This document shows positions 214-18,042 of a DNA stretch of 18,657 nt, piece after piece; position 1 is the first letter of the stretch, and the number at the start of each line of letters is the position of its first letter. A model generated the notes under the pieces. The model searched no databases. It was given only the letters and a program-made list of their open reading frames with translations, and was not told where the DNA came from. The stretch spans positions 1 to 18,657 of the forward strand of contig JAYUUO010000019.1 of the NCBI GenBank assembly GCA_043754515.1. Direction: 5' to 3'. The DNA comes from Armatimonadota bacterium (GTDB lineage Bacteria; Armatimonadota; Armatimonadia; Armatimonadales; Armatimonadaceae). The translations under genes were made by a program, and so were the position numbers.

Positions 214-242
214 TTGACAACATGACTATTTTTCGTTATACA
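214..242 (+). promoter_or_regulatory. Sigma70-type promoter of the sugar operon
   Basis: TTGACA (214-219), 17-bp spacer, TATACA (237-242) in an AT-rich tract. The -10 box is imperfect. Confidence 0.6.
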
Positions 243-297: not shown

Positions 298-999
298 ATG
301 AAACGCTCACAAATCAATGCCATTATGCGCGACGCCTTAACTTTTCTATCGGCGAATCGCTTTTATCTACCACCGTTCGCGCACTGGACGCCGACCGATT
401 GGCAGGGTAAAGGCGTGGAATGCATCGACATCGTGTCGCAACAACTCGGTTGGGACATCACCGACTTCGGGAGCGGCGACTACGAGCGGTGCGGCTTGTT
501 TTTATTTACGATTCGCAACGGAACCATGGCTGACCTTGCGCTACCGGGCGGCAAGGTATACGGGGAAAAGGTTCTAGTGGTCGGCGACAACCAGATAACG
601 CCAACGCATTACCATTACCAAAAAATGGAAGATATTATCAACCGGGGCGGCGGCAAGCTGGTGCTAAGGCTTTGGAATAGCACCGAGAGCGGTGACGCGC
701 TCGCGCAAACCCCGGTTACGGTCGCCGTAGACGGTGTGCAAGTCACGCTTGGGGCGGGCGATGAACTTGTGCTTGCGCCGGGAGAATCGGTTTGTTTGCC
801 GCAACGGTTGTGGCACACGTTCTGGGCGCGGCGCGGCACGGTGCTGGTCGGCGAAGTCAGCCGGGTCAACGACGATCAGACCGATAACCGCTTCTTGGAT
901 CCGGTCGGACGCTTCCCCAAAATTGTCGAGGACGAACCGCCGCTCCATCTTCTCTACAACGATTACGCCCGGTTTTATTTGTTTGCCGCGTCCCGATAA
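298..999 (+). CDS. D-lyxose/D-mannose family sugar isomerase (cupin)
   Basis: Family-typical N-terminus MKRSQIN...LPPFAHWTP, then LGWDITDFGSG, LFTIRNG, metal motif TPTHYH..KMEDIINRGGG, H.FW and GEVS.VNDD.TDN.F. The start is placed at ATG 298 rather than at 268. Confidence 0.93.
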   Translation: MKRSQINAIMRDALTFLSANRFYLPPFAHWTPTDWQGKGVECIDIVSQQLGWDITDFGSGDYERCGLFLFTIRNGTMADLALPGGKVYGEKVLVVGDNQITPTHYHYQKMEDIINRGGGKLVLRLWNSTESGDALAQTPVTVAVDGVQVTLGAGDELVLAPGESVCLPQRLWHTFWARRGTVLVGEVSRVNDDQTDNRFLDPVGRFPKIVEDEPPLHLLYNDYARFYLFAASR

Positions 1000-1022
1000 A
1001 CGAACCCTGAAAGGAAATAGAC

Positions 1023-2687
1023 ATGATTTCGCTTGACAAAGATGGGTACTTTCGGCGCGACGCGGGCGTTTTCGTGCCGTTTGGCGTGAACTACTGGCCC
1101 GGTTCGACCGGCACGGCATTGTGGCGCGAATGGCCCGCCGAAGAAATACAGCGCGACCTTGACACCGTGGTTCGCCTCGGCATGAACACGGTGCGCTTTT
1201 TCCTGCTTTGGCAGGATTTTGAACCGGAAATCGGGCAGTATGATCCGGTCTGCTTCGACCGCTTGACAACGTTTGTCGGGTGGTGCGCGGAACGGAACAT
1301 TCTCGCGCACCCAGCCGTTTTTGTCGGGTGGATGAGTGCTTCAACATTCTTTCCCGCGTGGAAAGAGGGGCGCAATTTGTACACCGACCCCGTTGTGCGC
1401 GAGCGGTCGGTGCTGTTCGCGTCCCGCGTCGCGGAGGTTCTGTCGCCCCAACAATCACACCTGCTTGCCATAGACATCGGCAACGAAATCGGTTGCATTG
1501 GCGACAGTCACAGAGCCGCTTCATCTGCCGTTGCCGAATGGTGTGCAGATATTTGCGCCGTATTGAAGGCGGCGTGTCCCGATACGCTGGTCATATCGGG
1601 ACTGGACAGTACGCCGATACACACGAATACCGGCTGGCGTTTAACCGATCAGCCGGGGTGTGACTTATATTCCGCACACGGCTATCCGGTTCCCAATTGG
1701 AATGTGGTGCGCTTTGACGGCATGAGCGACCCGCTCGCTCAAGCGATTTTGCCTGCCTATGCCCGGATATTGCGAGCCTACGGTCCGACGTTCGCGCAAG
1801 AGTTCGGCACTATCGCTACCGGCAGTGTGGTGCAACAGGAAACCTATCTGCGCGGTCTGCTTCCGGCGTTGTGGGATGCGGGCGCGAACGGCTTTTTGTG
1901 GTGGTGCTTGAAAGATATGTCCGAAACCGCCCCGCCCTACGACCTCGTTCCGTTCGAGTGTCGTCTAGGTTTAGTGAACGACGATGGCGAGGTCAAGCCG
2001 GGTCTCGGTTACCTACTTGAGTTTGGACATAGCCTTACGACTCGTCCTCCGGCATCGCCGTCTGGCAAACCGATGATTGGAATCTATATCCCAAATGACT
2101 ACTATGGTAGTAAAAGTAAACCGGCTGTACTCGCGCCCCGGTTTATTATCGCGGATTACCTTCTTCGGCGTGCGGGCTACGATACCCGTTTTGTGCGGGG
2201 TGATTCCCCGATGCAGAACCATCTCGCTTCGGTGGATGCCTTACTTGTCGTCGGGGCATCTTTGCCGCCTGTCGAAGTGGCGTATCTTGCTGAATGGGTA
2301 CAAACCGGTGGAAAACTTTTATGGCACGGCATTGAGGCAACCCGTTGGGGACCGACGGTTTCGCGCCTTATCGGGGCAGACATGGCAGACCTTCGCACCG
2401 GACGCTCGTTATTGGCTGACGTTTTCGGAGAGAATTGGGAGTTCACCGCGTGGCACGATGGGACATGGGTTGTTCCCGAAGCGACGACCGCGACGGTCTT
2501 AGCACACGATAGCGAGCAAGGAACCCCGCTCGTTTTGCACAATCGGCTGGGGTGCGGTTCCGTTGTTTGCACGATGCCGCTTATCGAGGATGGTATTCTC
2601 GCTATCGCGGAAAACCGGGCGGCACGTGACCGATGGGCGCAATGGTACGACGGGGTATTGCGCGTGGCTCTCGCACCTACTGCTTAA
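1023..2687 (+). CDS. Clan GH-A glycoside hydrolase (GH5-like, probable beta-mannosidase) with C-terminal GH42-like trimerisation domain
   Basis: GVNYWP, MNTVRFFLLWQDFEP, acid/base motif DIGNE, HGYP, nucleophile motif QEFG, WWC and E..LGL. The C-terminal part has LAEWVQTGGKLL and LG.GSVV. SD GAAAGGA upstream; no signal peptide seen. Confidence 0.82.
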   Translation: MISLDKDGYFRRDAGVFVPFGVNYWPGSTGTALWREWPAEEIQRDLDTVVRLGMNTVRFFLLWQDFEPEIGQYDPVCFDRLTTFVGWCAERNILAHPAVFVGWMSASTFFPAWKEGRNLYTDPVVRERSVLFASRVAEVLSPQQSHLLAIDIGNEIGCIGDSHRAASSAVAEWCADICAVLKAACPDTLVISGLDSTPIHTNTGWRLTDQPGCDLYSAHGYPVPNWNVVRFDGMSDPLAQAILPAYARILRAYGPTFAQEFGTIATGSVVQQETYLRGLLPALWDAGANGFLWWCLKDMSETAPPYDLVPFECRLGLVNDDGEVKPGLGYLLEFGHSLTTRPPASPSGKPMIGIYIPNDYYGSKSKPAVLAPRFIIADYLLRRAGYDTRFVRGDSPMQNHLASVDALLVVGASLPPVEVAYLAEWVQTGGKLLWHGIEATRWGPTVSRLIGADMADLRTGRSLLADVFGENWEFTAWHDGTWVVPEATTATVLAHDSEQGTPLVLHNRLGCGSVVCTMPLIEDGILAIAENRAARDRWAQWYDGVLRVALAPTA

Positions 2688-2703
2688 CAGAGAAAAACGG
2701 TTT

Positions 2704-3747
2704 ATGGCTATCATCACACAAAAAAGCGCGGTTTCCGCGGTTTATGCCGACGCCGCTCGCCGGGGCTGGGTGCTGCCTGCGTTCGGCACGGAAAACTCGA
2801 CCACCACGGAAGCGATTCTGGCGGGAACCGCGATGCACGCCGCCACCCTCGGCGAGCCGGAGTTGCCGGTGATTCTGGCAATCACCAACCTGTACGATGA
2901 GCGGCAACAAAGCGTCAACTATACTCACACTGGGCGTTGGGATGTCGGCATGAAACGCTTTTTGACCGACGTGCAAATCTTAGCTGGGGAGCCGGATAGC
3001 CCGTTCGCCAATTTGCGCGTCATGATTCATCTCGATCATATACGTCCTGAGGTAGACGCAGAACTGCTGGCGTGGGACATGGGCGCGTTTTCGTCTATTT
3101 TGTTTGATGCGTCCGCGTTCGCGCCGGAAGAAAATATCCGTCTGACACGGGCGTTTGTAAAGGCGCAAGGTGAAAACGTGCTGATTGAAGGTGCGTTTGA
3201 AGGCATCGTATCCGCCGGAAAATCCGCCACGCCATCTCCAAGCGCGAAGCCGTCACTTGACTCTATCGCGGATGCGGCGCAGGCGTATGTGCAGGAAACC
3301 GACGTTGACCTCGTGGTCGCCGACCTCGGCACCGAACACCGTGCCGGAGCCGCGCAACTGTTTTACCGGCAGGACACGGCGCGGGCTATCGCGGAGAGAA
3401 TCGGAGCGCGGCTCGTGCTACATGGCACGTCGTCCGTGCCGGAAGAAAGCCTCGGCGGCTTGTTCGCCGACGGCATCAGCAAGGTGAACCTGTGGACGGC
3501 GCTGGAGCGCGACAGTTCGGTACTGCTTTTCGCCGACATGGTACGAAACGCTGCAAGGGTGGTTGGGGCGAAAGAAGCAACGCGCTTATTTGAGCAAGGG
3601 CTTCTCGGCGCGGCGGCGGATCGCGTGAGCCGTCCCGATCTCGCTTTTTTCACCACGGCGTACCGTCAGTCGCACGTTTTCGAGGCGATGCGCGATCTGG
3701 TAACGCGCTATCTCGTTCGCTGGTACACACCGCGAAAGGATGCTTGA
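2704..3747 (+). CDS. Class II (metal-dependent) ketose-phosphate aldolase, divergent
   Basis: HLDH, FDAS, EENIRLT, DLGTEH, LVLHGTS and KVN motifs of the fructose/tagatose-bisphosphate aldolase II fold. ATG 2704 follows the upstream stop codon. Confidence 0.85.
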   Translation: MAIITQKSAVSAVYADAARRGWVLPAFGTENSTTTEAILAGTAMHAATLGEPELPVILAITNLYDERQQSVNYTHTGRWDVGMKRFLTDVQILAGEPDSPFANLRVMIHLDHIRPEVDAELLAWDMGAFSSILFDASAFAPEENIRLTRAFVKAQGENVLIEGAFEGIVSAGKSATPSPSAKPSLDSIADAAQAYVQETDVDLVVADLGTEHRAGAAQLFYRQDTARAIAERIGARLVLHGTSSVPEESLGGLFADGISKVNLWTALERDSSVLLFADMVRNAARVVGAKEATRLFEQGLLGAAADRVSRPDLAFFTTAYRQSHVFEAMRDLVTRYLVRWYTPRKDA

Positions 3748-3755
3748 AGTCGCGC

Positions 3756-5261
3756 ATGAGTTACCTCGGCTTAGACATCGGAACCACCGGTTGCAAAGCG
3801 TTGGCGTTTGGCGCGGATGGCTCGCCTTATGCGCTTGCGTACCGCGAATATGCCACCCACTTCGGCGCGGACGGCTCCGCCGAACTGGATGTGGCGGTTG
3901 TGGTTAAAAATTGTCGCGCCGTTATCCGCGAAGCCGCCGCCGCGTGTGCAGAAAATGACCCGGTGCAGGCTTTAGCCGTGTCAAGTCAGGGTGAAGCAGT
4001 GACGCCGGTCGGCGCGAACGGCGCGTTTCTCGCGCCTGCTATGATCTCGTCCGATGCTCGCCCCGCCCCGACCGTGATGCGATACGCGAGCGAGGCAGGG
4101 CACTTGTACGACGTGACCGGACACACCGCGCACCCGATGTTTACGCTATTCAAATTTGCCTATCTGCGCGAAGCGTCGCCGGATATGTGGCGTCAAGCCG
4201 CGCACTTTTTCTGCTTTGAAGACTTGCTTCACTACGTTTTAGGTGTCGAGAAGCCGACAATCAGTTGGTCGCTTGCGGGGCGAACGATGCTGTTTGATGT
4301 GCGCCGCCACGAGTGGGATGCCGAACTTTTGCGCGGCGCGGATGTGTCGGGGCGTTTGGCACGTCCCCTGCCGTCCGGAGTTGTGGCGGGCGTGGTGTCG
4401 GACGCGGCGGCGGCGCGGTGCGGCTTGCCAACGGGCGTCAAAGTCGTAACCGGGGGGCATGATCAGGTGTGCGCCGCGCTCGGTTGCGGAGCGGTCGCGC
4501 CGGGAACCGCGACGTACGCGCTTGGCACGGTGGAGTGTTTGACCGCGACGCTGGAGGGGGCCGTTTTCGCCGACGCGATGCGAAGCGGCAACCTTTGCAC
4601 CTACGACCACTGTGTTCCGGGCAGGTACGCGACTATCGCCTACACGCTGACAGGGGGCAATTTGTTTCGCTGGTTCCGCGACGAATGGGGGCAAGTCGAA
4701 GCGGCGCAAGCGGAGCGCGACGGCGAGAACGTTTTCGACAAACTGTTCGCACTGATGCCGCCCACGCCGACCACGCTCATTGCCCTGCCGTACTTCACGC
4801 CGACCGGAACCCCGTTTTTCGATGTCGAGGCGACTGGCGCGATTCTCGGATTACGCCTGTCCACCAAGCGAGGCGAGGTGTTGCGGGCGTTGTTGGAAGG
4901 ATTAGCGTTCGAGATGCGCCGCAACCTGACGATTCTGGAGGGCGCGGGGATTTCAGTGGAAGAACTGCGCGTCACCGGGGGCGGCTCCCTTCACCGCGAC
5001 GTGCTACAAATCCGCGCCGATGTGCTGGGGCGCGATGTTGTACGTGTCGAAACCGCGCAAGCCGGATGCCTCGGCGCGGCACTGCTCGCCTGCGCCGCGC
5101 ACACGCGAACCCCGGTGGAATTGCTCGCGGCGCAGTGGGTGAGAACCGGCGAGCGCGTTTCGCCCAACCCGCAAAACGCCGCTTTTTATAGCGACCGCTT
5201 CGCCGCGTACCTCAAACTGTACCCCGCCCTGCGCGACCTTGCCCCAAGTCGGGCGTTATAA
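3756..5261 (+). CDS. FGGY-family carbohydrate kinase (xylulokinase-like)
   Basis: YLGLDIGTTGCKA, SSQGE, GGHDQ, LPYF..TGTP, LEGLAFE, TGGGS and LGAALLA. An alternative TTG start at 3744 overlaps the aldolase stop. Confidence 0.92.
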   Translation: MSYLGLDIGTTGCKALAFGADGSPYALAYREYATHFGADGSAELDVAVVVKNCRAVIREAAAACAENDPVQALAVSSQGEAVTPVGANGAFLAPAMISSDARPAPTVMRYASEAGHLYDVTGHTAHPMFTLFKFAYLREASPDMWRQAAHFFCFEDLLHYVLGVEKPTISWSLAGRTMLFDVRRHEWDAELLRGADVSGRLARPLPSGVVAGVVSDAAAARCGLPTGVKVVTGGHDQVCAALGCGAVAPGTATYALGTVECLTATLEGAVFADAMRSGNLCTYDHCVPGRYATIAYTLTGGNLFRWFRDEWGQVEAAQAERDGENVFDKLFALMPPTPTTLIALPYFTPTGTPFFDVEATGAILGLRLSTKRGEVLRALLEGLAFEMRRNLTILEGAGISVEELRVTGGGSLHRDVLQIRADVLGRDVVRVETAQAGCLGAALLACAAHTRTPVELLAAQWVRTGERVSPNPQNAAFYSDRFAAYLKLYPALRDLAPSRAL

Positions 5262-5278
5262 AGAAAGCCGATATACCT

Positions 5279-7801
5279 ATGATTCCTGATCACACATTGC
5301 CGCTAAATGGCCAATGGCAACTCGCCCACTCCGAGGACTTTCCCGACGACATCGTTGCCGTCTCCGATCAGTCCCGCGAGTTCTACCCGGCGCACGTGCC
5401 GGTTGGAGCGCATACCGCATTGCTTGCGGCGGGCGTGATCGCCGACCCCAGAAACGGCATGAACTCGCTATCGGCTCGCTGGGTGGAGGAACAGCACTGG
5501 GTGTACCGACGCACATTTGCCACGCCGCCGACCCTTGCCCCCGGCACGCCCGCCGCTATCGCTTTCACGATTTTGGAAGGATGCGCCGATGTTTTCGTGA
5601 ATGGCAACCTTGTCGGGCGGCACGAAAACGCGCACCGCCCCGCCTACTTCGCCGTGACTAAACACCTTGCCGCGCCGGGAGAAACGAACACCGTGATTGT
5701 GCGGATCGAAGCCGGTCTGCACGCGACGCGCGACAAACCGCCGTACCCGAATATGGGCCCCGGACAACTGACCAACCGCTCATGGCTTCGCAAAATGCAG
5801 CACCAGTGTGGTTGGGACTCGCAGGTGCGCCTACAAAACGTCGGCATTTTGGGGGATGTGACGCTCGAATGGCGTCCAGGCGGGGTGCGTGTGGAAACGG
5901 TTTCCGTGTTTGCGGTGGCGAGCGACGACCTGACCCGCGCCACGGTTCACGCCCGCGTTTATGCCGAAAACAGTACGGAGGACGCCGTTCCCGGCACGGT
6001 GCGCCTCCGTATCGTCGAAACGGGGCAAAGTGTCGAAGTTACGGCGACCTTCGCACCCGGCAAAAGCGAAACCGAAGCAACCATTACGTTGGATACGCCG
6101 CGCCTGTGGTGTCCGGTCGGACACGGCGAGCCGTTCCGATACAGCGCGACGTGTGACGTATCGGTGAACGGCGACACGGAGGCGTTCGAGCGCCGGTTTG
6201 GTGTTCGCAAAGTTGCCTTTGACCAAACGCCGCACCCGCAGGGCGGACGCTATTTTACGCTCACCATCAACAACCGACCAATTTTCGCCAAAGGAGCCAA
6301 CTGGATTCCCGGCGATATGCTGTACGCCGAGATGACCCCGGAGCGGTTCCGCGCTTTTGGGCAACAAGCCCTTGATGCCCACTTCAACATTTTGCGAATC
6401 TGGGGCGGCGGGCTGTACGCTGACGCCGCGTTGCTCGACTTTTGCGACGAAACCGGGCTACTCGTTTGGCACGATTTCGCGTTCGCGTGCGCCAACTATC
6501 CGGGCGACGTGCGAGCGTTCGTGCAGGAAGTGCGCCTCGAAGCCGCGCACGTCGTGCGGGAACGGGCGCATCATCCATGCCTCGTGGTCTGGTGCGGCAA
6601 CAATGAGGTAGAAATGTTCGACGGCGGCAACGGCTGGACTAAGACCGGTCCTATACACTCGCATTACGCCCTGTTTCATCGTGATTTACCACGAATCGTG
6701 CAACGTGATGCCCCGCACACGTTCCACTGGACAAGTTCGCCGTTTTCGCCCGATTTGCTTGCGCCTAACGACCCCACAGCGGGCGATCAGCACCAATGGG
6801 GACAAGGCTTCGATCAGGACGGCTGGCGGTTTCGCACACTCACCGACCGGTTCGCCTCTGAAGGTGGGTTCTTCGGATGCGCCCCGGCGAAAAGTTTGCG
6901 TCAGTTTCTCGCGCCGGGGGATCAGCACGTTTTGTCGCCCGCATGGTATCACCACGACAACACATTCGCGCATTCCGCCGATGTGTGCGGCGAAATTGGA
7001 CGCGCCTACGCGATGATAACACTGTTCACCGGGCGCGACTCAAAGAATATGAGCATGGACGACTTCGCCGCGTTGAGCGGGCTTTTGCAGGGCGAATGCT
7101 ACGGGGAAATGATCTCAAACTATCGCCGCCGGATGTATGACAGTGCCGCTACGATTTTCTGGATGTTCAACGATTCGTGGCCGACGACGAACAGCTGGTC
7201 AACCGTGGACTACTACAACCGGCGCAAACCCGGCTTCTACGCGGTGCGCCGTGCTTTCGCACCAGTGTCGGTGGTGGTGGAGGAGGACGGCGACGGGTAC
7301 GCAGTGGTCGGTGTAAACGACACACTCGCCCCATGGTCAGGTATTCTGCAAGCCGGGATTTTCAGCGCAAGCGGCGCGGTGCGGCGCGACGAACCTGGCT
7401 TTGGCATGGTCACACTCGCGCCGAACAGCCGCACCCAATTGGGTGCCATCGCGCCGCCCACCGGCACGGAGCGCGACGTTCCGGTCGCCGGGTACGCGGT
7501 ACTGTCGGGCGCGGACGGCGCACACGTGGCCGCGCACCGAGTTTGGAACCGGCGTTTCCACGAAATCGGCTTATCTGGGAACCTGACGATTTCCGTGGAG
7601 CACAACGGCGACACGCTGACGCTGACAAGCGACATGTTTGTGTGGGGGTGCTTGCTCGATGTGGACGGCGAGGCTGTTCTTTCCGACAACGGTTTCGACC
7701 TATATCCGGGCATACCCCGCGTCCTCACCGGTTGGCGCGACCAGCAAACCGCTTCGGTGATAACTACCGGCAACCGGCTTGTCGCCGGATGGTCCGCATA
7801 G
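5279..7801 (+). CDS. GH2 beta-mannosidase
   Basis: LRK.Q...GWD, KGANWIP.D, N.LRIWGGG.Y, CDE.GLLVWHDF.FAC, WCGNNE (acid/base), RFASE.G (nucleophile), W.FND.WP..SWS.VDY and SDN.FDL.PG. No signal peptide seen. Confidence 0.92.
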   Translation: MIPDHTLPLNGQWQLAHSEDFPDDIVAVSDQSREFYPAHVPVGAHTALLAAGVIADPRNGMNSLSARWVEEQHWVYRRTFATPPTLAPGTPAAIAFTILEGCADVFVNGNLVGRHENAHRPAYFAVTKHLAAPGETNTVIVRIEAGLHATRDKPPYPNMGPGQLTNRSWLRKMQHQCGWDSQVRLQNVGILGDVTLEWRPGGVRVETVSVFAVASDDLTRATVHARVYAENSTEDAVPGTVRLRIVETGQSVEVTATFAPGKSETEATITLDTPRLWCPVGHGEPFRYSATCDVSVNGDTEAFERRFGVRKVAFDQTPHPQGGRYFTLTINNRPIFAKGANWIPGDMLYAEMTPERFRAFGQQALDAHFNILRIWGGGLYADAALLDFCDETGLLVWHDFAFACANYPGDVRAFVQEVRLEAAHVVRERAHHPCLVVWCGNNEVEMFDGGNGWTKTGPIHSHYALFHRDLPRIVQRDAPHTFHWTSSPFSPDLLAPNDPTAGDQHQWGQGFDQDGWRFRTLTDRFASEGGFFGCAPAKSLRQFLAPGDQHVLSPAWYHHDNTFAHSADVCGEIGRAYAMITLFTGRDSKNMSMDDFAALSGLLQGECYGEMISNYRRRMYDSAATIFWMFNDSWPTTNSWSTVDYYNRRKPGFYAVRRAFAPVSVVVEEDGDGYAVVGVNDTLAPWSGILQAGIFSASGAVRRDEPGFGMVTLAPNSRTQLGAIAPPTGTERDVPVAGYAVLSGADGAHVAAHRVWNRRFHEIGLSGNLTISVEHNGDTLTLTSDMFVWGCLLDVDGEAVLSDNGFDLYPGIPRVLTGWRDQQTASVITTGNRLVAGWSA

Positions 7802-7815
7802 CACCGGACGCGATA

Positions 7816-7858
7816 TGACCACTGTGATTCAAAAAGTTTTCACAGTGGTCACTTTTTT
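7816..7858 (+). terminator. Intrinsic terminator of the sugar operon
   Basis: Perfect 12-bp stem TGACCACTGTGA (7816-7827) / TCACAGTGGTCA (7840-7851), followed by cTTTTTT, 15 nt after the GH2 stop codon. Confidence 0.8.
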
Positions 7859-7860
7859 GC

Positions 7861-7889
7861 TTGACAACGAATCGAAGAGCGTGTATTAT
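7861..7889 (+). promoter_or_regulatory. Sigma70-type promoter of the regulator gene
   Basis: TTGACA (7861-7866), 17-bp spacer, TATTAT (7884-7889). Confidence 0.75.
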
Positions 7890-7991
7890 AAAATCAATTC
7901 ATCTACGAAGCCGTAGAAATCAGTGCCGCAGTGCGAGAAAGTTCTCGAAACGTTTTTCATCACTTGCCCAGACAGAGCCGGATTATGTGTT

Positions 7992-9194
7992 ATGCCGAAA
8001 ACCCGACCGATCCTTGCGCCCGCAAAAAAGAGTTACATTTCGCGTGCTGCGACAATAGGGCGCATTCAATCGGACTTGCGCCAGCGCGTTGGCGATGGTG
8101 TGTGGGAACCCGGCACACTGATTCCCAGTCGCCGCGTACTTGCCGAAGAGTTTGGCGTAGATTTAAGCACGGTTCGCCGTGCCACGTTGCCCTTGATTGA
8201 CGAGGGGATGTTGCGGGTGGATCGCCGGGGAACATTTGTGCCGGTCGGAACCGGGGGAACCGTTGAAAGAAGCCCGATGGCGGGCTTGATGAATCACACG
8301 GTCGCGGTGCTGACTCCGTTCAGCGCAATGCCGATGCAAACCATTTCGGCGAACGGTTGGGGCATTACGCTCACTAACGCGACTCTGCAAGCCGTTTACG
8401 ACGCGGGTTTGCACGCGATTGTTTTGCACCCCGACCGGTTGCAAAACGACAGCATGGCGCAACTTGTCGCCAACTGCCCGTATGGCATTATTTGCGGCGA
8501 ACTCAGTCACGACTTACAACACTTATACGAACTACTCGCGGCGGCAAGAGACGCTTCCGTGCCGGTGGTGGTGTACGGCGACGGTGTCGAACTCGCGTTC
8601 TACGACCGTGTGGTGTCGGATCATGTCGAGGGCGCGTATCAGTTGACAAAGTGGCTGATTGGAACCGGGAGAAAACGCCTTTTGAATGTTTGGCCCGCAC
8701 CGAGCCAAGGCTACTGGTTCGGGATGCGCGAGGCGGGAACACGCCGCGCTATCGCGGAAGCCGGTTTGGAGTTTTCGGAGCCGATAACTGTACCGAACCT
8801 GTATGAGTTTAATACAGAGCGCGAAGGGTTCGCGGCAAAGGTGCGCGTCTACGCCGGGTATCTCGCCGAGTATCTTGTCGGGCGGCACGATCCGTGCGAT
8901 GCCCTGATGGTGTCTACCGACGGCGATGTTTACATAGTTGCCGCCGCGTGCCGGATGCTGGGCAAGGAACCCGGCGTGGATGTTGTCATTGCTGGCTACG
9001 ACAACTACTGGGCGGATGTCACGGACAAGGACTACGAGCGAAGTCGCCCGGTAGCGACGGTGGACAAGCAGAACGCCAAAATCGGCGCGGCACTGGCACA
9101 ATTGCTGTTTGAGCGGATTCACAACAATGGTGACGCCGCGCCGCGCGTGGTTTCGATTACACCGGAACTGGTGGTAACCGCCTCCGATCCATAA
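7992..9194 (+). CDS. AraR-like regulator: GntR winged-HTH plus LacI-type sugar-binding domain
   Basis: G.WEPGTLIPSRRVLAEEFGV..STVRRA...L..EG (GntR HTH), then V.SDH.EGAY.LT..LI..G, R.AG, PG.DV.IAGYDN and TVD.....IG..LA.LL.ERI (LacI effector domain). The start is uncertain (7992 or 7923). Confidence 0.9.
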   Translation: MPKTRPILAPAKKSYISRAATIGRIQSDLRQRVGDGVWEPGTLIPSRRVLAEEFGVDLSTVRRATLPLIDEGMLRVDRRGTFVPVGTGGTVERSPMAGLMNHTVAVLTPFSAMPMQTISANGWGITLTNATLQAVYDAGLHAIVLHPDRLQNDSMAQLVANCPYGIICGELSHDLQHLYELLAAARDASVPVVVYGDGVELAFYDRVVSDHVEGAYQLTKWLIGTGRKRLLNVWPAPSQGYWFGMREAGTRRAIAEAGLEFSEPITVPNLYEFNTEREGFAAKVRVYAGYLAEYLVGRHDPCDALMVSTDGDVYIVAAACRMLGKEPGVDVVIAGYDNYWADVTDKDYERSRPVATVDKQNAKIGAALAQLLFERIHNNGDAAPRVVSITPELVVTASDP

Positions 9195-10019: not shown

Positions 10020-13000
10020 TTGCCCTCGCTCGTCCCCGCATCCGAATCCGACTTACCGCTTATTGCCCGGTTGCGCGACGCCGTTTATCGCGAGCGGCTG
10101 GCGGTCGCGCTGTTCGCGAACGGCGTGCCGGTCAGCCCCGGTTACACCTACTACGACCGGGAAGCCGCGCGCTGGTTTTCCGCCTCCGTCACCGTGCCGA
10201 CGGAGTGGGCGGGGGAGCGGGTCGGGCTGTGTATCAAGATCGCGGGGGGAGAACCGCTTCTGTTCGTGGATAGCAAGCCGTACCAGGCACTCGACTATTA
10301 TCACGAAACGGCGTTGCTTCACGACCCGGCGTTGGGCGGCGAAACGCATGAGTTGGGCATCGAAGTGTACGCCCGAACCGTAGGCGTTGACGTGGTTTTT
10401 GAATCTGCCGAGCTGGTTCTCATGGACCGGGAGGCGTCGCGGTTGCTGTACGACACCCGCGTCCTACAACAAATGGCCTACTCCACCCGTGGCCCCCTTT
10501 ATGAGCACGGCCTCAGCCCGTTGCAACAACTTAGCGACAGAGTGGACGCTTCCAGTTCGGCATCCATCCGCGACAGCTTCCCGAAAATCAACGACAGTCT
10601 CCAACTCGCGCGAAGAGTCATGGCGATGTTGTTCAAGCCCGAGACGACAACGCGACCGGTCGAACCGCGCGTCGTGACCTGCGTCGGGCATTCGCACCTC
10701 GATCTCGCGTACCTGTGGGCGTTGCCGAACACGCGCAAGAAGGTGGGGCGGACGTGGGCGAGTATGCTCCGGCTGATGGACGAGTACGCCGAGTTCCAAT
10801 TCACGCAGTCGCAACCATTCCTGTATGACGTCTGCAAGGCCGATTACCCCGACCTCTGGGAGTGGGTGAAGGCGCGGGTCGCCGAAGGACGCTGGGAGCC
10901 GACCGGCGCGATGTGGGTCGAGCCGGACGCCAACATTCCTTCGGGCGAGTCGCTAATCCGGCAGATACTTCACGGACAGGCCTTCTACAAGCGCGAGTTC
11001 GGTGCCGTCTCACGGGTGGCCTGGCTTCCGGACACGTTCGGCTTCCCCGCGAGTCTGCCGCAAATCCTCGCCGGTTGCGGCGTCCGGTACCTGCTGACCT
11101 CGAAACTTTCCTGGAACGACACGAACCCTTTCCCGCACGACACGTTCCGCTGGCGCGGTAACGACAGTGCTTCCGAGGTGCTAACCCACTTCCTGACCGC
11201 CCCCGAATCCCATCCTCAGCTCGGACGCGAGGTCGCCACGTACAACGGAACCGCGACGGCGGGGCAGATTGACGACGCGTGGGAGCGGTACGCGCAGAAG
11301 AACGTAAACAATGACATTCTGTACTGCGTCGGCTATGGCGACGGCGGCGGGGGCACTACGCGCGAGATGGTGGAGATGATCCGCCTCTTCGCCGACATGC
11401 CGGGGATCCCGTGCGCCACGTTCGGGCGCGCCGACGCCTTCTTCGACCGGCTTGACGAGAAGCGGGGCGAGTTCCCGCTCTGGCAGAGCGAATTGTATCT
11501 AGAGAATCACCGGGGGACGCTGACGTCGCAGGCGTGGATCAAACGCGCCAACCGGTACGCGGAGACGTTGCTACGGAACGCCGAGATATTCTCCGTGCTT
11601 GCCGAGACCGAGACCGGCACCGCCTACCCCGCGTACGAGTTGCGCGGCGCGTGGCAGACCCTTCTCACGAACCAGTTCCACGACATCCTCGCCGGAACCG
11701 TGGTCCCGCAAGCCGTCGCCGACGCCCGCCGCGACTTCGCCCGCATCACGGAGATCGGCACGCTACTTCTGGAGAACGCGCTCGCCGCCATCGCGGAGCG
11801 GGTGCTGCTCAAAGACGACTCGTTCGTGATATTCAATCCCACCGACACCCTGCGCCCGTCCGACACGGTGCGCGTCACCGTGCCCGCGACCGTGATCAAG
11901 GCGGTCGAGTTCGCGGACGCGGGCGACGCCCTGCTACCGTCCCAGTTCCTCTCGGTGGACAAGAAAGGCAACCGGGACTACCTGGTGCTACTCGGCGAGG
12001 TCGGCGCGCTCGGCTACCAGACGATCACCGCGTACAAGTCGGCGGGTCCACAGGAGGAGAGCACGGTTTTCGCGGCGGACGGCGTGTTGGAAAACGACTT
12101 CGCCCGCGTGACGCTGAACGAGTCCGGCGAGATCACGTCGTTCGTCCACAAGATCCCGGCGGACACCGACGAGGAACCGGACGCCGTGCAGGAGCGGGAG
12201 GTGATCGCGGGCGGGTGGCGCGGGAACGTGCTCGCCCTATACGACGACAAGCCGTCAGCGTATGACGCCTGGAACATTGACCGCGAGGCGTTCGACACGG
12301 GCGTCGAACTTTCCGCCGAAAGCAGCGTGGAGCGGTTCGCGGTGATCGAAGAAGGCCCCGTGCGCGCTGGGTACGAGATCACGCACCGGTTCCGCGCGTC
12401 CACGATCACCCAGCGCATCTTCCTGTACGCGCACTCGCCCCGACTCGAAGTACAAACCACGGCGGACTGGCACGAGCATCAGATCCTGTTGTGCGTGCAT
12501 TTCCCGGTCGCGATCAACGCGCCGACGGCGACGTACGAGATCCAGCATGGCTACATCGAACGTCCGACGCGTGAGAACACATCGTGGGACGCGGCCCGCT
12601 TCGAGGTCTGCCACCATCGCTTCATGGATCTGTCGGAGGGGGATTACGGCGTCTCGCTCCTGAACGATTGCAAGTACGGCGGTTGTGTCCGCGACAACGA
12701 CCTGCGCCTGACGCTGATCAAATCCGGCATTTATCCCGACCCGGAGGCCGATCAGGGGGAGCATATATTCACCTACGCGCTGCTCCCGCACACCGGCAGT
12801 TTCCGCAACGAGACGGTGGACGAGGCGCACGCGCTGAACTACCCGCTCCTGTCCGCCTTCGCCCGCAAGCGCGAGCCCCGCAAGACGCCCGCGTTGCCCC
12901 GCGCCTTCGCGCTTGCGTCCGTGAACGATCAGGGCCTGGTGATTGACGCGATCAAGCGGGCGGAGGACGGGAACGGCTACATCGTCCGCCTATACGAAGC

Positions 13001-13178
13001 GTTCAACACGCGCGGCTCGGCGACCCTGACGCTCGGTTTCGACGTCGCGGAGGCGTTCGCCACGAACCTGCTTGAGGAGGACCCCGAGCCGGTGGCGGTG
13101 ACCGGCGGGGGCGACATCGCGTTCTCCTACCGCCCGCACGAGATCAAGACCTTCCGAGTCGTGCCCGCCGCCCGTTGA
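10020..13178 (+). CDS. GH38 alpha-mannosidase
   Basis: GHSHLD.A.LW (Zn ligands), WVEPD.NIPSGESLIRQ, WLPDTFG (nucleophile), GYGDGGGG, ELYLE.HRGT.TSQ, NQFHDIL.G, LLND.KYG, LTL.KS...PDP.ADQG.H and RLYE. TTG start with upstream GGGGAAG. Confidence 0.95.
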   Translation: MPSLVPASESDLPLIARLRDAVYRERLAVALFANGVPVSPGYTYYDREAARWFSASVTVPTEWAGERVGLCIKIAGGEPLLFVDSKPYQALDYYHETALLHDPALGGETHELGIEVYARTVGVDVVFESAELVLMDREASRLLYDTRVLQQMAYSTRGPLYEHGLSPLQQLSDRVDASSSASIRDSFPKINDSLQLARRVMAMLFKPETTTRPVEPRVVTCVGHSHLDLAYLWALPNTRKKVGRTWASMLRLMDEYAEFQFTQSQPFLYDVCKADYPDLWEWVKARVAEGRWEPTGAMWVEPDANIPSGESLIRQILHGQAFYKREFGAVSRVAWLPDTFGFPASLPQILAGCGVRYLLTSKLSWNDTNPFPHDTFRWRGNDSASEVLTHFLTAPESHPQLGREVATYNGTATAGQIDDAWERYAQKNVNNDILYCVGYGDGGGGTTREMVEMIRLFADMPGIPCATFGRADAFFDRLDEKRGEFPLWQSELYLENHRGTLTSQAWIKRANRYAETLLRNAEIFSVLAETETGTAYPAYELRGAWQTLLTNQFHDILAGTVVPQAVADARRDFARITEIGTLLLENALAAIAERVLLKDDSFVIFNPTDTLRPSDTVRVTVPATVIKAVEFADAGDALLPSQFLSVDKKGNRDYLVLLGEVGALGYQTITAYKSAGPQEESTVFAADGVLENDFARVTLNESGEITSFVHKIPADTDEEPDAVQEREVIAGGWRGNVLALYDDKPSAYDAWNIDREAFDTGVELSAESSVERFAVIEEGPVRAGYEITHRFRASTITQRIFLYAHSPRLEVQTTADWHEHQILLCVHFPVAINAPTATYEIQHGYIERPTRENTSWDAARFEVCHHRFMDLSEGDYGVSLLNDCKYGGCVRDNDLRLTLIKSGIYPDPEADQGEHIFTYALLPHTGSFRNETVDEAHALNYPLLSAFARKREPRKTPALPRAFALASVNDQGLVIDAIKRAEDGNGYIVRLYEAFNTRGSATLTLGFDVAEAFATNLLEEDPEPVAVTGGGDIAFSYRPHEIKTFRVVPAAR

Positions 13179-13827: not shown

Positions 13828-14394
13828 CTACGCTTCGGGGGTGAGGCGAGGCTCATCCAGAAGGATAGATTTGTCATTCTTCGATAAGGTTTCCCACAAC
13901 TTTCTTCCGCCATGCTGAAGAGCAAAACCAAGTTCTGATTCGCTAATGCCGATACATTGAACCAGCAAAATGACAGGCGTATCAGGCGATTTTGAAAAGG
14001 GGTAGGGTCCGTAACTGGTTTCGCTAAGGGGTACAAACATCAACGCCACATACCCCAAACTCTTTAGATTATCACCGAGTTGCAGAGTGTCGTAGGCAGT
14101 GAACGCAGTGTCGTACTGCGCCGGGTAGAGGCAAAGTGCTTGCATCATAGACAACACCCAGTCTCCAGGCGACGCTACGACAACACAAAGTTGGCTTTGT
14201 TGTGCTGGATTAATATTTCGCTGGCTTAATCCGTTAGTCGCGTATATGTATCCACCACGGTCACCTTTCAGCGCGAACCGCATGATTGCGATCTCTGCTG
14301 TTTCACAACTTTCGGTGACGGGATGTATCTGCTGTGGCACCCCCCAAAGCGTTATGTACCCGCGAGTTATCTGCTTGAGTATTCCACTCCTCAT
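13828..14394 (-). CDS. Suppressor-of-fused (SUFU) domain protein, probable toxin immunity protein
   Basis: YIYATNGLS, W...MMQ.L..YP, F..YDT, LLVQCIGISESEL.FA...GG..L...L and terminal D..R match the bacterial SUFU pattern. SD AAAGGT upstream; visibly more AT-rich than its neighbours. Confidence 0.75.
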   Translation of the reverse strand: MRSGILKQITRGYITLWGVPQQIHPVTESCETAEIAIMRFALKGDRGGYIYATNGLSQRNINPAQQSQLCVVVASPGDWVLSMMQALCLYPAQYDTAFTAYDTLQLGDNLKSLGYVALMFVPLSETSYGPYPFSKSPDTPVILLVQCIGISESELGFALQHGGRKLWETLSKNDKSILLDEPRLTPEA

Positions 14395-15793: not shown

Positions 15794-16378
15794 GTGCCAA
15801 AAAACGAGCGGGAAGAGATTTCGGGCAAAGGGGAGACGGTTCTGGTCGGACGTGCCCGCGCCGGGGATCGTTCCGCCTTCGATCATCTGTACTCGATGTG
15901 GATGACCCCGCTCCGTAACTTCCTGCGCCACCGCGTCGCGCAACAATCCGTTGACGATGTAATGCAGGAAACGTTGATCGCCGCGTGGGCCGGTCTGCCG
16001 CGCTACGTGCCGCGCCCCCAGGCGACATTGTCCACGTGGATGTACCAGATCGCGCGGTATAAGGCGGCGGATTGGGCACGCGGCAACGCAAAGCAGGCCG
16101 CCCGCGAGACGCCAATCACGCCCGCCGACGAGGAGCGGATCGCCGCCCCGGACACGGCGTCGAGTATCGAGCAGGATACCGAAATCGCCGCGCTATTAAA
16201 AACGCTGTCGCCGGAACAGCACGAATTATTGGAGCTTCATTACGCGCACGGTCTGACGCTCGCGCAGATCGCCGAGCGACAGGGGCGCAACCTTAGCACC
16301 GTCAAATATCACTTTTACCGCGCCCAGAACGCGCTGTCCCTTGCGCGAATCGCCCGCGAGAAAGAGGCTAACCTATGA
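15794..16378 (+). CDS. ECF-type RNA polymerase sigma-70 factor
   Basis: Region 2: LV.RA..GD..AF..LY, DDVMQET.I.AW, TWMYQIAR.K..D..R. Region 4: LS.EQ.ELLEL.Y..GLTL.QIA...G....TVK...YRA. GTG start after GGGGAGG. Confidence 0.93.
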   Translation: MPKNEREEISGKGETVLVGRARAGDRSAFDHLYSMWMTPLRNFLRHRVAQQSVDDVMQETLIAAWAGLPRYVPRPQATLSTWMYQIARYKAADWARGNAKQAARETPITPADEERIAAPDTASSIEQDTEIAALLKTLSPEQHELLELHYAHGLTLAQIAERQGRNLSTVKYHFYRAQNALSLARIAREKEANL

Positions 16379-16806
16379 ACGAAACGGACCGCCTCGAACT
16401 CCTGCGCTACCTACATGAGCGCGGCACCATGACATGGGCCGAGCAGTTTGCTACCCGGTGGGGGCTACTCGTCAGCGCGTCCCGGCGCCGCGAATATGCG
16501 CGGATGACGTGGCTACACCGCTCCCTCGCGGTACATTTCGCGCCGGGGTTCTTGTTCCCGCGCCCCGCGCTGCCGTGGGGCAGTCTCGGGGTGTTCGGTT
16601 TGCTGGTAATCGCCCTCATCGTCGGGCTGCTGTTGCACACGGGACAGGCGCGGCGCGAATCGCCCGCGTCGGTTACGCCGTCCGCTGCTCTGACGTGTCC
16701 CTCCCACCCGCGAAGCCCCGGCGAGCGCACGCCGCGCCGCACGCCCTTCGCGAGCGTCGCGCCGCGCGGCGTTCGGGCACCGGGCGACGATTGTCCCTTT
16801 CACTAA
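16375..16806 (+). CDS. Putative membrane-anchored anti-sigma factor
   Basis: ATGA overlap with the sigma stop codon. The N-terminal helical region aligns with the ZAS pattern but lacks its His/Cys ligands. One TM helix (LGVFGLLVIALIVGLLL) is followed by a short tail with CPSH and a terminal CPFH. Confidence 0.72.
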   Translation: MNETDRLELLRYLHERGTMTWAEQFATRWGLLVSASRRREYARMTWLHRSLAVHFAPGFLFPRPALPWGSLGVFGLLVIALIVGLLLHTGQARRESPASVTPSAALTCPSHPRSPGERTPRRTPFASVAPRGVRAPGDDCPFH

Positions 16807-16853
16807 CCGGTACGCGCCGCCGCATCCATGGCGCGAGAATAGGTTTGCTCACT

Positions 16854-17504
16854 ATGTCACGTATTCGCATCATCGCGCCAGTCGTTCTGGCCGCGCTGTC
16901 TCTCTGTGCTTTCTCCGCCGCGGCTCACGCTGTTGTCCTCGACGCCGCCAATGATTTCGTCAGCACCTACACCGGCGCGAAAGGCGGCGACCTGGACGTT
17001 CTATCCACCGACGTTGTCTATGACGGCACGAACATCTCGTTGACCGCGACGATGAATGGGGCCATAGGCACCACGCAGGGTGCCATCTATGTTTGGGGCC
17101 TCGACCGGGGCAAAGGCGCGACCACCGCCAACTTCGCGTCCATCGGTTTGCCGAACGTGATCTTCGATTCGGTCGTTGTACTGCGCCCGGACACAACCGT
17201 TAGCGTGTTCCGGATCGCGGGCGGTGGTTCCGCGACCGGAACGGCGGTCATTTCCGGCAACACGATCAGCGCGAGTATTCCCGCCTCTACGCTACCGACG
17301 CAGGGCTTCGCCGTGAGTGACTACACGTGGAACCTGTGGCCACGTATTTCCGGCGGCTCGGACGCGAACGTCTCGGACTTCGCGCCGAACGCGAACAACG
17401 CCGCGATCACCGTGGTGCCCGAAGTGGGCTCCGCCACGCTACTGATGCCCGCGATTCTTACCGCGCTCGGGGTCGTCGTGGTGCGGCGGCGCAAGTCCGT
17501 TTAG
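16854..17504 (+). CDS. Secreted PEP-CTERM-type (exosortase-target) surface protein
   Basis: Signal peptide MSRIRIIAPVVLAALSLCAFSAAAHA and a Thr/Ser/Gly-rich beta-type body (D..NDF..TYTG...DLD, YVWG.DRG, WNLWPR, SDFAP). The C-terminus is VPE, a hydrophobic helix and RRRK. Confidence 0.88.
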   Translation: MSRIRIIAPVVLAALSLCAFSAAAHAVVLDAANDFVSTYTGAKGGDLDVLSTDVVYDGTNISLTATMNGAIGTTQGAIYVWGLDRGKGATTANFASIGLPNVIFDSVVVLRPDTTVSVFRIAGGGSATGTAVISGNTISASIPASTLPTQGFAVSDYTWNLWPRISGGSDANVSDFAPNANNAAITVVPEVGSATLLMPAILTALGVVVVRRRKSV

Positions 17505-17634: not shown

Positions 17635-18042
17635 CTAATCAGGCGTTGTACCATTCGCCGCGCCCCTTGGCGGAACGCCGTCCTCTTCTATGATCTCGAC
17701 ATCGCCCGCGCGTAGGGCGGCGCGGGCACCCGCCATCCACGGCTTCGCGGGCATTTCGCGGAGCCAGTCCGACAGCGACGGGATGCACCCCAGATCCTCC
17801 AGCACGTGCTGCTCGGCGACATCGCGCGTGTGAACCTCGCGCCGGTCTTTGTTTATGAGCGTGCGCCCGAAGATCTCCTCAATCAGGAAAATCCCGTACG
17901 CCGAGTGGAAGACACAGCGGTGCGTGACTTCGGCGTGCGCGGCTTTGGTGGAATCCATCTTCTCGTGGATCGGCAGGTAATCGTCCGGCACCCCGCCCCA
18001 GCGTTTTGCCGACGAGCGGGCGTGAATCAGTGCTTTTGCCAT
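17635..18042 (-). CDS. DUF6915-like His-rich protein of unknown function
   Basis: HA.SS.K.WGG..DDYL.IH...D..K......HR...H...GIF..E.IFG, R.VAEQHV.EDLG.IPS..DW and PWM match my recollection of DUF6915. Confidence 0.8.
   Translation of the reverse strand: MAKALIHARSSAKRWGGVPDDYLPIHEKMDSTKAAHAEVTHRCVFHSAYGIFLIEEIFGRTLINKDRREVHTRDVAEQHVLEDLGCIPSLSDWLREMPAKPWMAGARAALRAGDVEIIEEDGVPPRGAANGTTPD

Follow-up and report, generated by a model that had tools for sequence, protein, structure and literature searches.

A conserved isomerase, FGGY kinase and divergent class II aldolase module as a candidate ketose-1-phosphate pathway in Armatimonadota

The L-fucose (FucI/FucK/FucA) and L-rhamnose (RhaA/RhaB/RhaD) routes each combine an isomerase, an FGGY kinase and a metal-dependent aldolase. 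FucK and RhaB phosphorylate carbon 1, whereas XylB and LyxK are distal kinases, and the aldolase fold of both routes differs from the triosephosphate isomerase (TIM) barrel that takes 3S-ketoses. These 3S-ketoses, which are made by cupin lyxose isomerases and accepted by TIM-barrel class II aldolases, belong to the series that mirrors the L-rhamnose and L-fucose routes. In enterohaemorrhagic Escherichia coli (EHEC), overexpression of the lmuKAI genes of OI-167 allows ManA-independent growth on mannose (PMC10128022). We analysed an operon on an 18,657-base contig of an Armatimonadota bacterium (GenBank assembly GCA_043754515.1, contig JAYUUO010000019.1; genome 5.13 Mb, 92.7% complete); this entire contig is referred to below as the window. 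A first-pass annotation had read the operon as a candidate undescribed isomerase-kinase-aldolase pathway for a manno-configured sugar released by beta-glycosidases. As a layout, the combination of a PF07385 isomerase, a kinase and a class II aldolase had been published for EHEC lmuKAI, albeit with a PfkB kinase and another aldolase (PMC10128022).

The operon spans positions 298-7801 and comprises five co-oriented genes in the order isomerase, glycoside hydrolase family 5 (GH5), aldolase, kinase and GH2, with intergenic gaps of 23, 16, at most 8 and 17 nt. All five genes of the tightly spaced unit reported at first pass were found, and their family matches were confirmed. The isomerase, LYX, matches PF07385 (318.8 bits, E 1.8e-95) and, over its full length, PDB 3KMH (E 4.5e-63), with its H-x-H, K-x-E and H motifs aligned; it also aligns with the lmuI product of strain O157 and does not reach the NF051472 cut-off (262 bits, cut-off 350). 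A second LYX copy of 202 residues, divergent from two short-chain dehydrogenase genes, lies elsewhere in the genome (G000:C156:3837-4445, minus strand); it is missing the C-terminal end of the family and is possibly truncated. Compared to the nearest relative (L001), the ratio of nonsynonymous to synonymous substitution rates (dN/dS) was 0.10 for the isomerase, 0.11 for the aldolase, 0.17 for the kinase and 0.12 for the GH2 gene, and these four genes are under purifying selection.

We collected loci for the best 80 of 423 metagenome matches to the aldolase, together with longer regions for 20 genome matches. Collapsing the 109 loci at 95% identity left 90, of which the 38 core-family loci flanked by 3 kb or more on each side entered a tally of neighbours within 6.5 kb; the window itself, which has 2.7 kb upstream, lies outside this tally. 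An FGGY kinase was found near the aldolase in 36 of the 38 loci and an isomerase in 34, and kinase and isomerase occurred together in 34, so that the trio singled out at first pass is conserved elsewhere. The isomerase was of three types: LYX (7 loci) and two enzymes with the L-fucose/L-arabinose-isomerase fold, ISOa (13) and ISOb (15), one locus having two types. LYX is thus the rarest, 27 of the 34 isomerase-bearing loci having none nearby, and the manno-configured substrate proposed at first pass holds at most for the LYX variant. Among 11 further loci that scored lower on the aldolase profile, four had both kinase and isomerase. Other neighbours were an amidohydrolase (12/38, every one with ISOb), a mutarotase-like gene (9/38) and an MtlD-like gene (8/38, usually directly after the kinase). 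The genome of the window also encodes an MtlD-like dehydrogenase (G000:C239:21628-22854, minus strand), as do 141 of 251 sampled genomes of the phylum; despite this, no match to a phosphotransferase system EIIC component was found in the genome. GH2 genes were present in four of the 38 loci and the window-type GH5 in none, and in the sister operon a GH31 gene lies between aldolase and kinase, with the GH5 orthologue (80%) on another contig. Because of these neighbour counts and the sister operon, we define the conserved unit as the aldolase, the FGGY kinase and an isomerase slot; the glycosidases, which the first-pass annotation had made part of the pathway, are local cargo.

The aldolase, ALD, scores 95.6 bits against PF01116, above the Pfam cut-off, and falls below every NCBIfam cut-off, with 71.6 of 343 bits for the fructose-bisphosphate aldolase (FBA) model TIGR01859 and 51 of 406 for NF005284, the measure of PRK06801 membership. 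By sequence, it is not the ordinary fructose-1,6-bisphosphate aldolase that the first-pass annotation had asked about; a canonical FBA is encoded on another contig (C80). Among 8000 scored candidates, the family comprised 476 clusters by single query and at least 1132 by profile at E<=1e-40, with named members in Armatimonadota, Clostridia, Bacteroidales and Lentisphaerae. It was present in 26 of the 251 phylum genomes, in none of 11 genomes of the same family or 14 of the same order, and in 3 of 401 genomes sampled around L002. The predicted model (pLDDT, a per-residue confidence score, 91.9; loop 170-179 disordered) is an FBA-type barrel with 14-24% identity to its structural matches.

Residue roles were mapped onto ALD from those given for SqiA and FBA (PMC10665668) and from alignments to E. 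coli references. The zinc ligands D111, H112, H212 and H240 are each present in 100% of 290 family sequences, in which N262 is also invariant. The carbon-1-phosphate pocket of SqiA consists of S211, T233 and the backbone of G181 (PMC10665668); in ALD these positions are S243 (100%), T265 (98%) and R213 (100%). On the distal side, the aspartate that contacts the C5 hydroxyl is replaced by W264 (100%) and the same-chain distal-phosphate arginine by E268 (100%), and the invariant E30 and E268 are both located at the distal site. In GatY numbering, E134, loop E142, G181, K184, D232 and R236 become A, G/T, R, A, W and E across the family, and the canonical FBA of the same genome keeps all six. T61, Y64, R67, Q69 and R321 are also invariant, as is an acid at position 166. 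By alignment, the ALD family thus appears to keep the zinc ligands and the carbon-1-phosphate pocket while a glutamate replaces one distal-phosphate arginine.

The kinase, KIN, carries FGGY_N and FGGY_C domains with the catalytic aspartate in a GHDQ motif at 234. It falls below every cut-off, including that of RhaB, with 250 of 380 bits for XylB (TIGR01312) and 113 of 471 for FucK, and in a quick tree it is placed, with support 98, in a clade separate from six E. coli references. At five FGGY specificity positions, taken from PMC3245297, KIN has G-E-M-D-C, with G-E where XylB has M-H. In common with FucK and RhaB it has a glycine at GlpK position 83, H-D at 244-245, GT-x-E and TL[FY]KL, and these signatures would favour phosphorylation at carbon 1. 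A KIN-clade profile gave 89 matches above 415 bits in 87 of the 251 phylum genomes; both kinases of one ALD locus, L068, fall outside the clade in the quick tree. The window and its sister form a pair on a long branch of the kinase tree, in which LYX loci occur at three separate places, indicating that the isomerase slot has been refilled repeatedly.

We additionally collected 40 of the profile-matched kinase loci. In 12 of them (L185, L188, L190, L191, L193, L202-L205, L207, L209 and L213) the kinase lies beside a second, unrelated class II aldolase, ALD2, seven times with ISOa; one further locus has ISOb and no aldolase. Eight of the ALD2-linked kinases nest in the clade of the window kinase (support 100, FastTree). 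ALD2 is marked by the motifs FN[VI][PA]YLP and ARLE/ARPD, and the three of the 12 that were tested fell under all NCBIfam cut-offs. It keeps E134 (11/11), the catalytic-loop E142 (10 of 11 aligned), G181, S/T211 and T233, has A or G at 232, and is without the distal Ser/Thr and the DPR arginine, a residue pattern that would fit a true ketose-1-phosphate lyase. At two ALD2 loci (L205:1079-5634 and L213:1861-5852), a fucose-isomerase-fold gene stands with a ribulokinase-like gene and araD, followed by the kinase and ALD2, which suggests that this isomerase-fold gene acts as an L-arabinose isomerase.

On balance, we think that the module probably converts a rare aldose by way of a ketose and its 1-phosphate to dihydroxyacetone phosphate (DHAP) and an aldehyde. 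We favour cleavage of a ketose-1-phosphate because two unrelated aldolases, with the carbon-1 pocket intact and the distal pocket partly dismantled, appear to serve one kinase clade. In the window, the cupin isomerase would turn a manno- or talo-configured aldose into a 3S-ketose, a step that either of the two L-fucose/L-arabinose-isomerase-fold enzymes would take in other loci. The FGGY kinase would then form the ketose-1-phosphate, and the zinc aldolase (D111, H112, H212, H240) would cleave the C3-C4 bond to give DHAP and an aldehyde, with the glycosidases as local cargo supplying the sugar. Phosphorylation at carbon 1 makes most sense if the far end of the sugar cannot feed central metabolism, and it is forced when C6 bears no hydroxyl. 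For this reason, and since 3S-ketoses mirror the L-rhamnose and L-fucose series, we tentatively rank a D-series 6-deoxyhexose such as D-rhamnose or 6-deoxy-D-talose first, at low odds. An equally tentative candidate is some other sugar altered at C5-C7, for example L-gulose, a 6-O-methyl hexose or a heptose; plain D-mannose or D-lyxose is slightly less likely, and any other substrate is less likely again. It is possible, though doubtful as a whole, that D-series 6-deoxyhexoses (D-rhamnose, quinovose, D-fucose, 6-deoxy-D-talose) or cell-envelope heptoses have in this module their missing phosphorylative route, that it works through a new class II aldolase family in which an acid closing strand 5 takes the place of the mobile-loop glutamate, and that three isomerases and two aldolases were recruited independently around one kinase clade.

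Several observations weigh against cleavage of a ketose-1-phosphate. By whole-sequence score, KIN is nearer XylB and LyxK than FucK or RhaB, and it groups with neither of the latter in either tree. Most of the 40 kinase loci have no adjoining aldolase or recognisable partner, and at L211:4299-9290 a transketolase stands with a fucose-isomerase-fold gene, a distant KIN, a DUF4432 gene and a Gfo oxidoreductase in a further unassigned sugar operon, a pairing that tells against the pathway as drawn, since carbon 1 must be free for transketolase to act. The neighbourhoods show no recurrent gene for an enzyme that would take up the aldehyde product, and the incomplete genome contains aldehyde dehydrogenases, no glycerol kinase over the cut-off and no Dak1 match. 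The known substrate of the MtlD-like neighbour, mannitol-1-phosphate, bears a distal phosphate. Within ALD, where residue roles were assigned by alignment, the zinc ligand E134 is replaced by A164, no glutamate stands at the customary loop position, and T61, R67 and R321 might yet hold a distal phosphate; R321 may be the counterpart of the partner-subunit arginine, in a region where the alignment is unreliable. ALD2 retains one distal arginine, R236, and the ALD of the window departs from its family at 17 of 120 conserved columns (family median 2), with E167 and D170 lost.

The main rival to ketose-1-phosphate cleavage is that the kinase places its phosphate on the far end of the ketose and that ALD, like AraD or GatZ, acts as a C4-epimerase through retro-aldol cleavage, rotation and re-ligation, yielding fructose-6-phosphate, xylulose-5-phosphate or sedoheptulose-7-phosphate. 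We consider this rather unlikely; it is kept alive by the missing aldehyde gene, the absence of glycerol kinase and Dak1 matches, the MtlD-like neighbours, L211 and the loss of the usual proton donor from ALD. The invariant T61, R67 and R321 and the best score of KIN, against XylB, also speak for it, as does the replacement of Asn24 by Cys or Gly in most ALD members, Asn-to-Cys being a GatZ trait (PMC11907403). There is a precedent in E. coli FbaA, which has a fructose-6-phosphate 4-epimerase side activity (PMC5434028). ALD does not resemble GatZ/KbaZ in sequence (hhalign probability 0.5%) and has three histidines, not their two-His-plus-Glu zinc site, a mismatch that lowers the chance of membership in that family and not the chance of ALD working as an epimerase.

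That the operon is an additional pathway for plain D-mannose or D-lyxose, similar to lmuKAI, is also rather unlikely; it would lead from mannose through fructose to a fructose phosphate, and the substrate of the aldolase would be either fructose-1-phosphate or the bisphosphate formed by the housekeeping phosphofructokinase. In EHEC, LmuI turns mannose into fructose and LmuK phosphorylates fructose (PMC10128022). Evidence for mannose comes from the GH5 enzyme, in which both catalytic glutamates and the -1 subsite motifs (GNE 153, HGYP 219, QEFG 259, LWWC 292 and FEC 311) match those of Op5Man5, a tested exo-beta-mannosidase whose -1 subsite residues have been named and which, among the aryl glycosides tried, acts only on p-nitrophenyl-beta-mannoside (PMC8233224). 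From these motifs, the GH5 looks like a true beta-mannosidase, which favours mannose. A GH2 gene is present in the operon and in three of the seven LYX loci, GH2 genes with canonical motifs occur at L026 and L203, and a GH38 gene lies near the operon. Relatives of the window GH2 were found in 55 of the 251 phylum genomes, mostly unlinked to the module. The window GH2 itself keeps NNE and the nucleophile glutamate and has GWDS, EGG and FWMFND in place of the GWDWG, EFG and WQ-ND of BtMan2A-type beta-mannosidases (W to S, F to G, Q to M), the roles of the altered residues being presumed here. A GH2 subfamily in L158-L177 likewise has FWM[YF]ND, often with EWG, in place of the beta-mannosidase motifs. 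We do not favour plain mannose. The absence of mannose-6-phosphate isomerase, on which the first-pass annotation had leaned, is true of the window only: the genome encodes ManA (G000:C140), and because it already has ManA and FBA, ordinary mannose use needs no such operon. A canonical-motif GH2 (C218) and the second LYX copy are likewise found elsewhere in the genome, plain mannose calls for neither a dedicated, heavily remodelled aldolase nor a private kinase clade, and most isomerase-bearing loci have no LYX nearby.

A route for sulfoquinovose or a uronate, with an anionic C6, as a variant of sulfo-EMP2 or of the E. coli ydj pathway, is very improbable. SqiA is the top PDB sequence match and the top Foldseek match of ALD, the sulfoquinovose isomerase model gives weak scores for both ISOa and ISOb, and two invariant arginines lie near the distal site; however, identity to SqiA is just 19-22%, the isomerases reach 97 and 70 bits of a cut-off of 700, D232 and E134 of SqiA become W and A164 in ALD, the distal site holds the invariant E30 and E268, and no sulfoquinovosidase or sulfolactaldehyde reductase or dehydrogenase recurs in the neighbourhoods. 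That the family pathway is real and the window copy of ALD alone has shifted substrate or lost activity is hardly credible: EGAFEG replaces the family's EGACDE only in the window and its sister among the sequences examined, and the divergent columns and long kinase branch point the same way, but dN/dS against the sister is 0.11 and all metal ligands and the acid at 166 are retained, so a shift would be compatible with ketose-1-phosphate cleavage and a loss of activity seems unlikely.

The features of the operon and its surroundings are collected in Table 1. The possible operon promoter was not flagged by a consensus promoter scan that required a final T. An inverted repeat, TGCACC-N5-GGTGCA, seen by eye at 160-176, lies 5' of the operon and is a candidate operator. 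Further along the window are genes unrelated to the operon, for a SUFU-domain protein (13828-14394, minus strand), an extracytoplasmic function (ECF) sigma factor (15794-16375, plus strand), a secreted protein with a C-terminal tail that we take to be PEP-CTERM-like (16434-17504, plus strand) and a DUF6915 protein (17635-18042, minus strand).

Table 1. Features of the operon and nearby genes in the window
Feature	Position	Strand	Evidence or remark
Possible operon promoter, TTGACA-17-TATACA	214..242	+	Tentative; by eye from sequence
LYX, D-lyxose/D-mannose isomerase family cupin, 233 aa	298..999	+	PF07385
GH5 exo-beta-mannosidase-like, Op5Man5 relative, accessory	1023..2687	+	PDB 7BOB, E 3e-127
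ALD, divergent class II (zinc, TIM-barrel) aldolase, 347 aa, unnamed ~334-aa family	2704..3747	+	PF01116
KIN, FGGY sugar kinase, own clade	3756..5261	+	PF00370/PF02782; alternative TTG start 3744
GH2 beta-mannosidase-like, altered active-site motifs, accessory	5279..7801	+	Beta-mannosidase 5N6U, E 3.3e-91
Likely intrinsic terminator at operon end	7816..7860	+	Perfect 12-bp inverted repeat 7816-7827/7840-7851, then T run
Regulator promoter	7861..7889	+	11/12 promoter match
GntR-LacI hybrid regulator	ATG 7992 or GTG 7923 to 9194	+	PF00392 + PF13377; putative operon link
GH38 alpha-mannosidase-like, near operon, putative link	10020..13178	+	PF01074, PF09261, PF07748, PF17677

The name fructose-bisphosphate aldolase, carried by more than 1000 protein clusters in Armatimonadota, Bacteroidota, Bacillota, Lentisphaerota and other groups, is probably wrong, and these clusters would mark an unassigned sugar pathway. 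If its substrate is a D-deoxyhexose or a heptose, the module would account for the recycling of bacterial cell-surface sugars, a process whose route we did not find described in the literature searched. Rare-sugar synthesis could also profit from a DHAP aldolase whose aldehyde site is remodelled, and all six enzymes (one kinase, two aldolases and three isomerases) are small, soluble and open to direct assay.

Finally, we compared the module to the described systems. It resembles the L-fucose and L-rhamnose routes in its three enzyme types and in several motifs of the kinase substrate site, and differs in the TIM-barrel fold of its aldolase and in its kinase, which lies far under the FucK and RhaB cut-offs and in another clade. 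The E. coli pair YdjH/YdjI, annotated as an octuluronate kinase and a 1-phosphate aldolase, shares 18-22% identity and differs in having dehydrogenases upstream and no isomerase; YdjH is a PfkB-type kinase. Sulfo-EMP2 (SqvB-SqvD-SqiK-SqiA; PMC10665668) resembles the ISOa and ISOb layouts in combining a mutarotase, a fucose-isomerase-fold isomerase, a kinase and a class II ketose-1-phosphate aldolase, but its aldolase shares ~20% identity with ALD and its kinase is of another family. The 4-epimerases GatZ/KbaZ and UxaE (PMC11907403) are likewise TIM-barrel aldolase relatives with remodelled active sites; they show no sequence link to ALD, which retains three histidines, and a lower structural score. 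The closest likeness in gene content is EHEC lmuKAI, in which LmuI (PDB 3KMH), of the same isomerase family, is followed by a kinase and a class II TIM-barrel aldolase (PMC10128022). Like ALD, LmuA lacks both distal residues, Ser and Arg, and an aromatic residue occupies D232. It is a member of PRK06801 (580 bits) and scores 63 bits on the ALD profile; furthermore, LmuK is a PfkB kinase, unlike the FGGY kinase of the window, and lmuKAI has an ATP-binding cassette (ABC) importer where the window operon has glycosidases. The O157 aldolase annotated as FBA (L120:3903-4763) lacks the distal Ser and Arg, has Tyr at D232, and may not be an FBA either. In literature listings drawn mostly from outside the subscription journals, we found neither the ALD, ALD2 and KIN families nor the module described. 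Taken together, the comparison identifies the module as a real and widespread variant of known pathway logic, built around kinase and aldolase families that are apparently undescribed.

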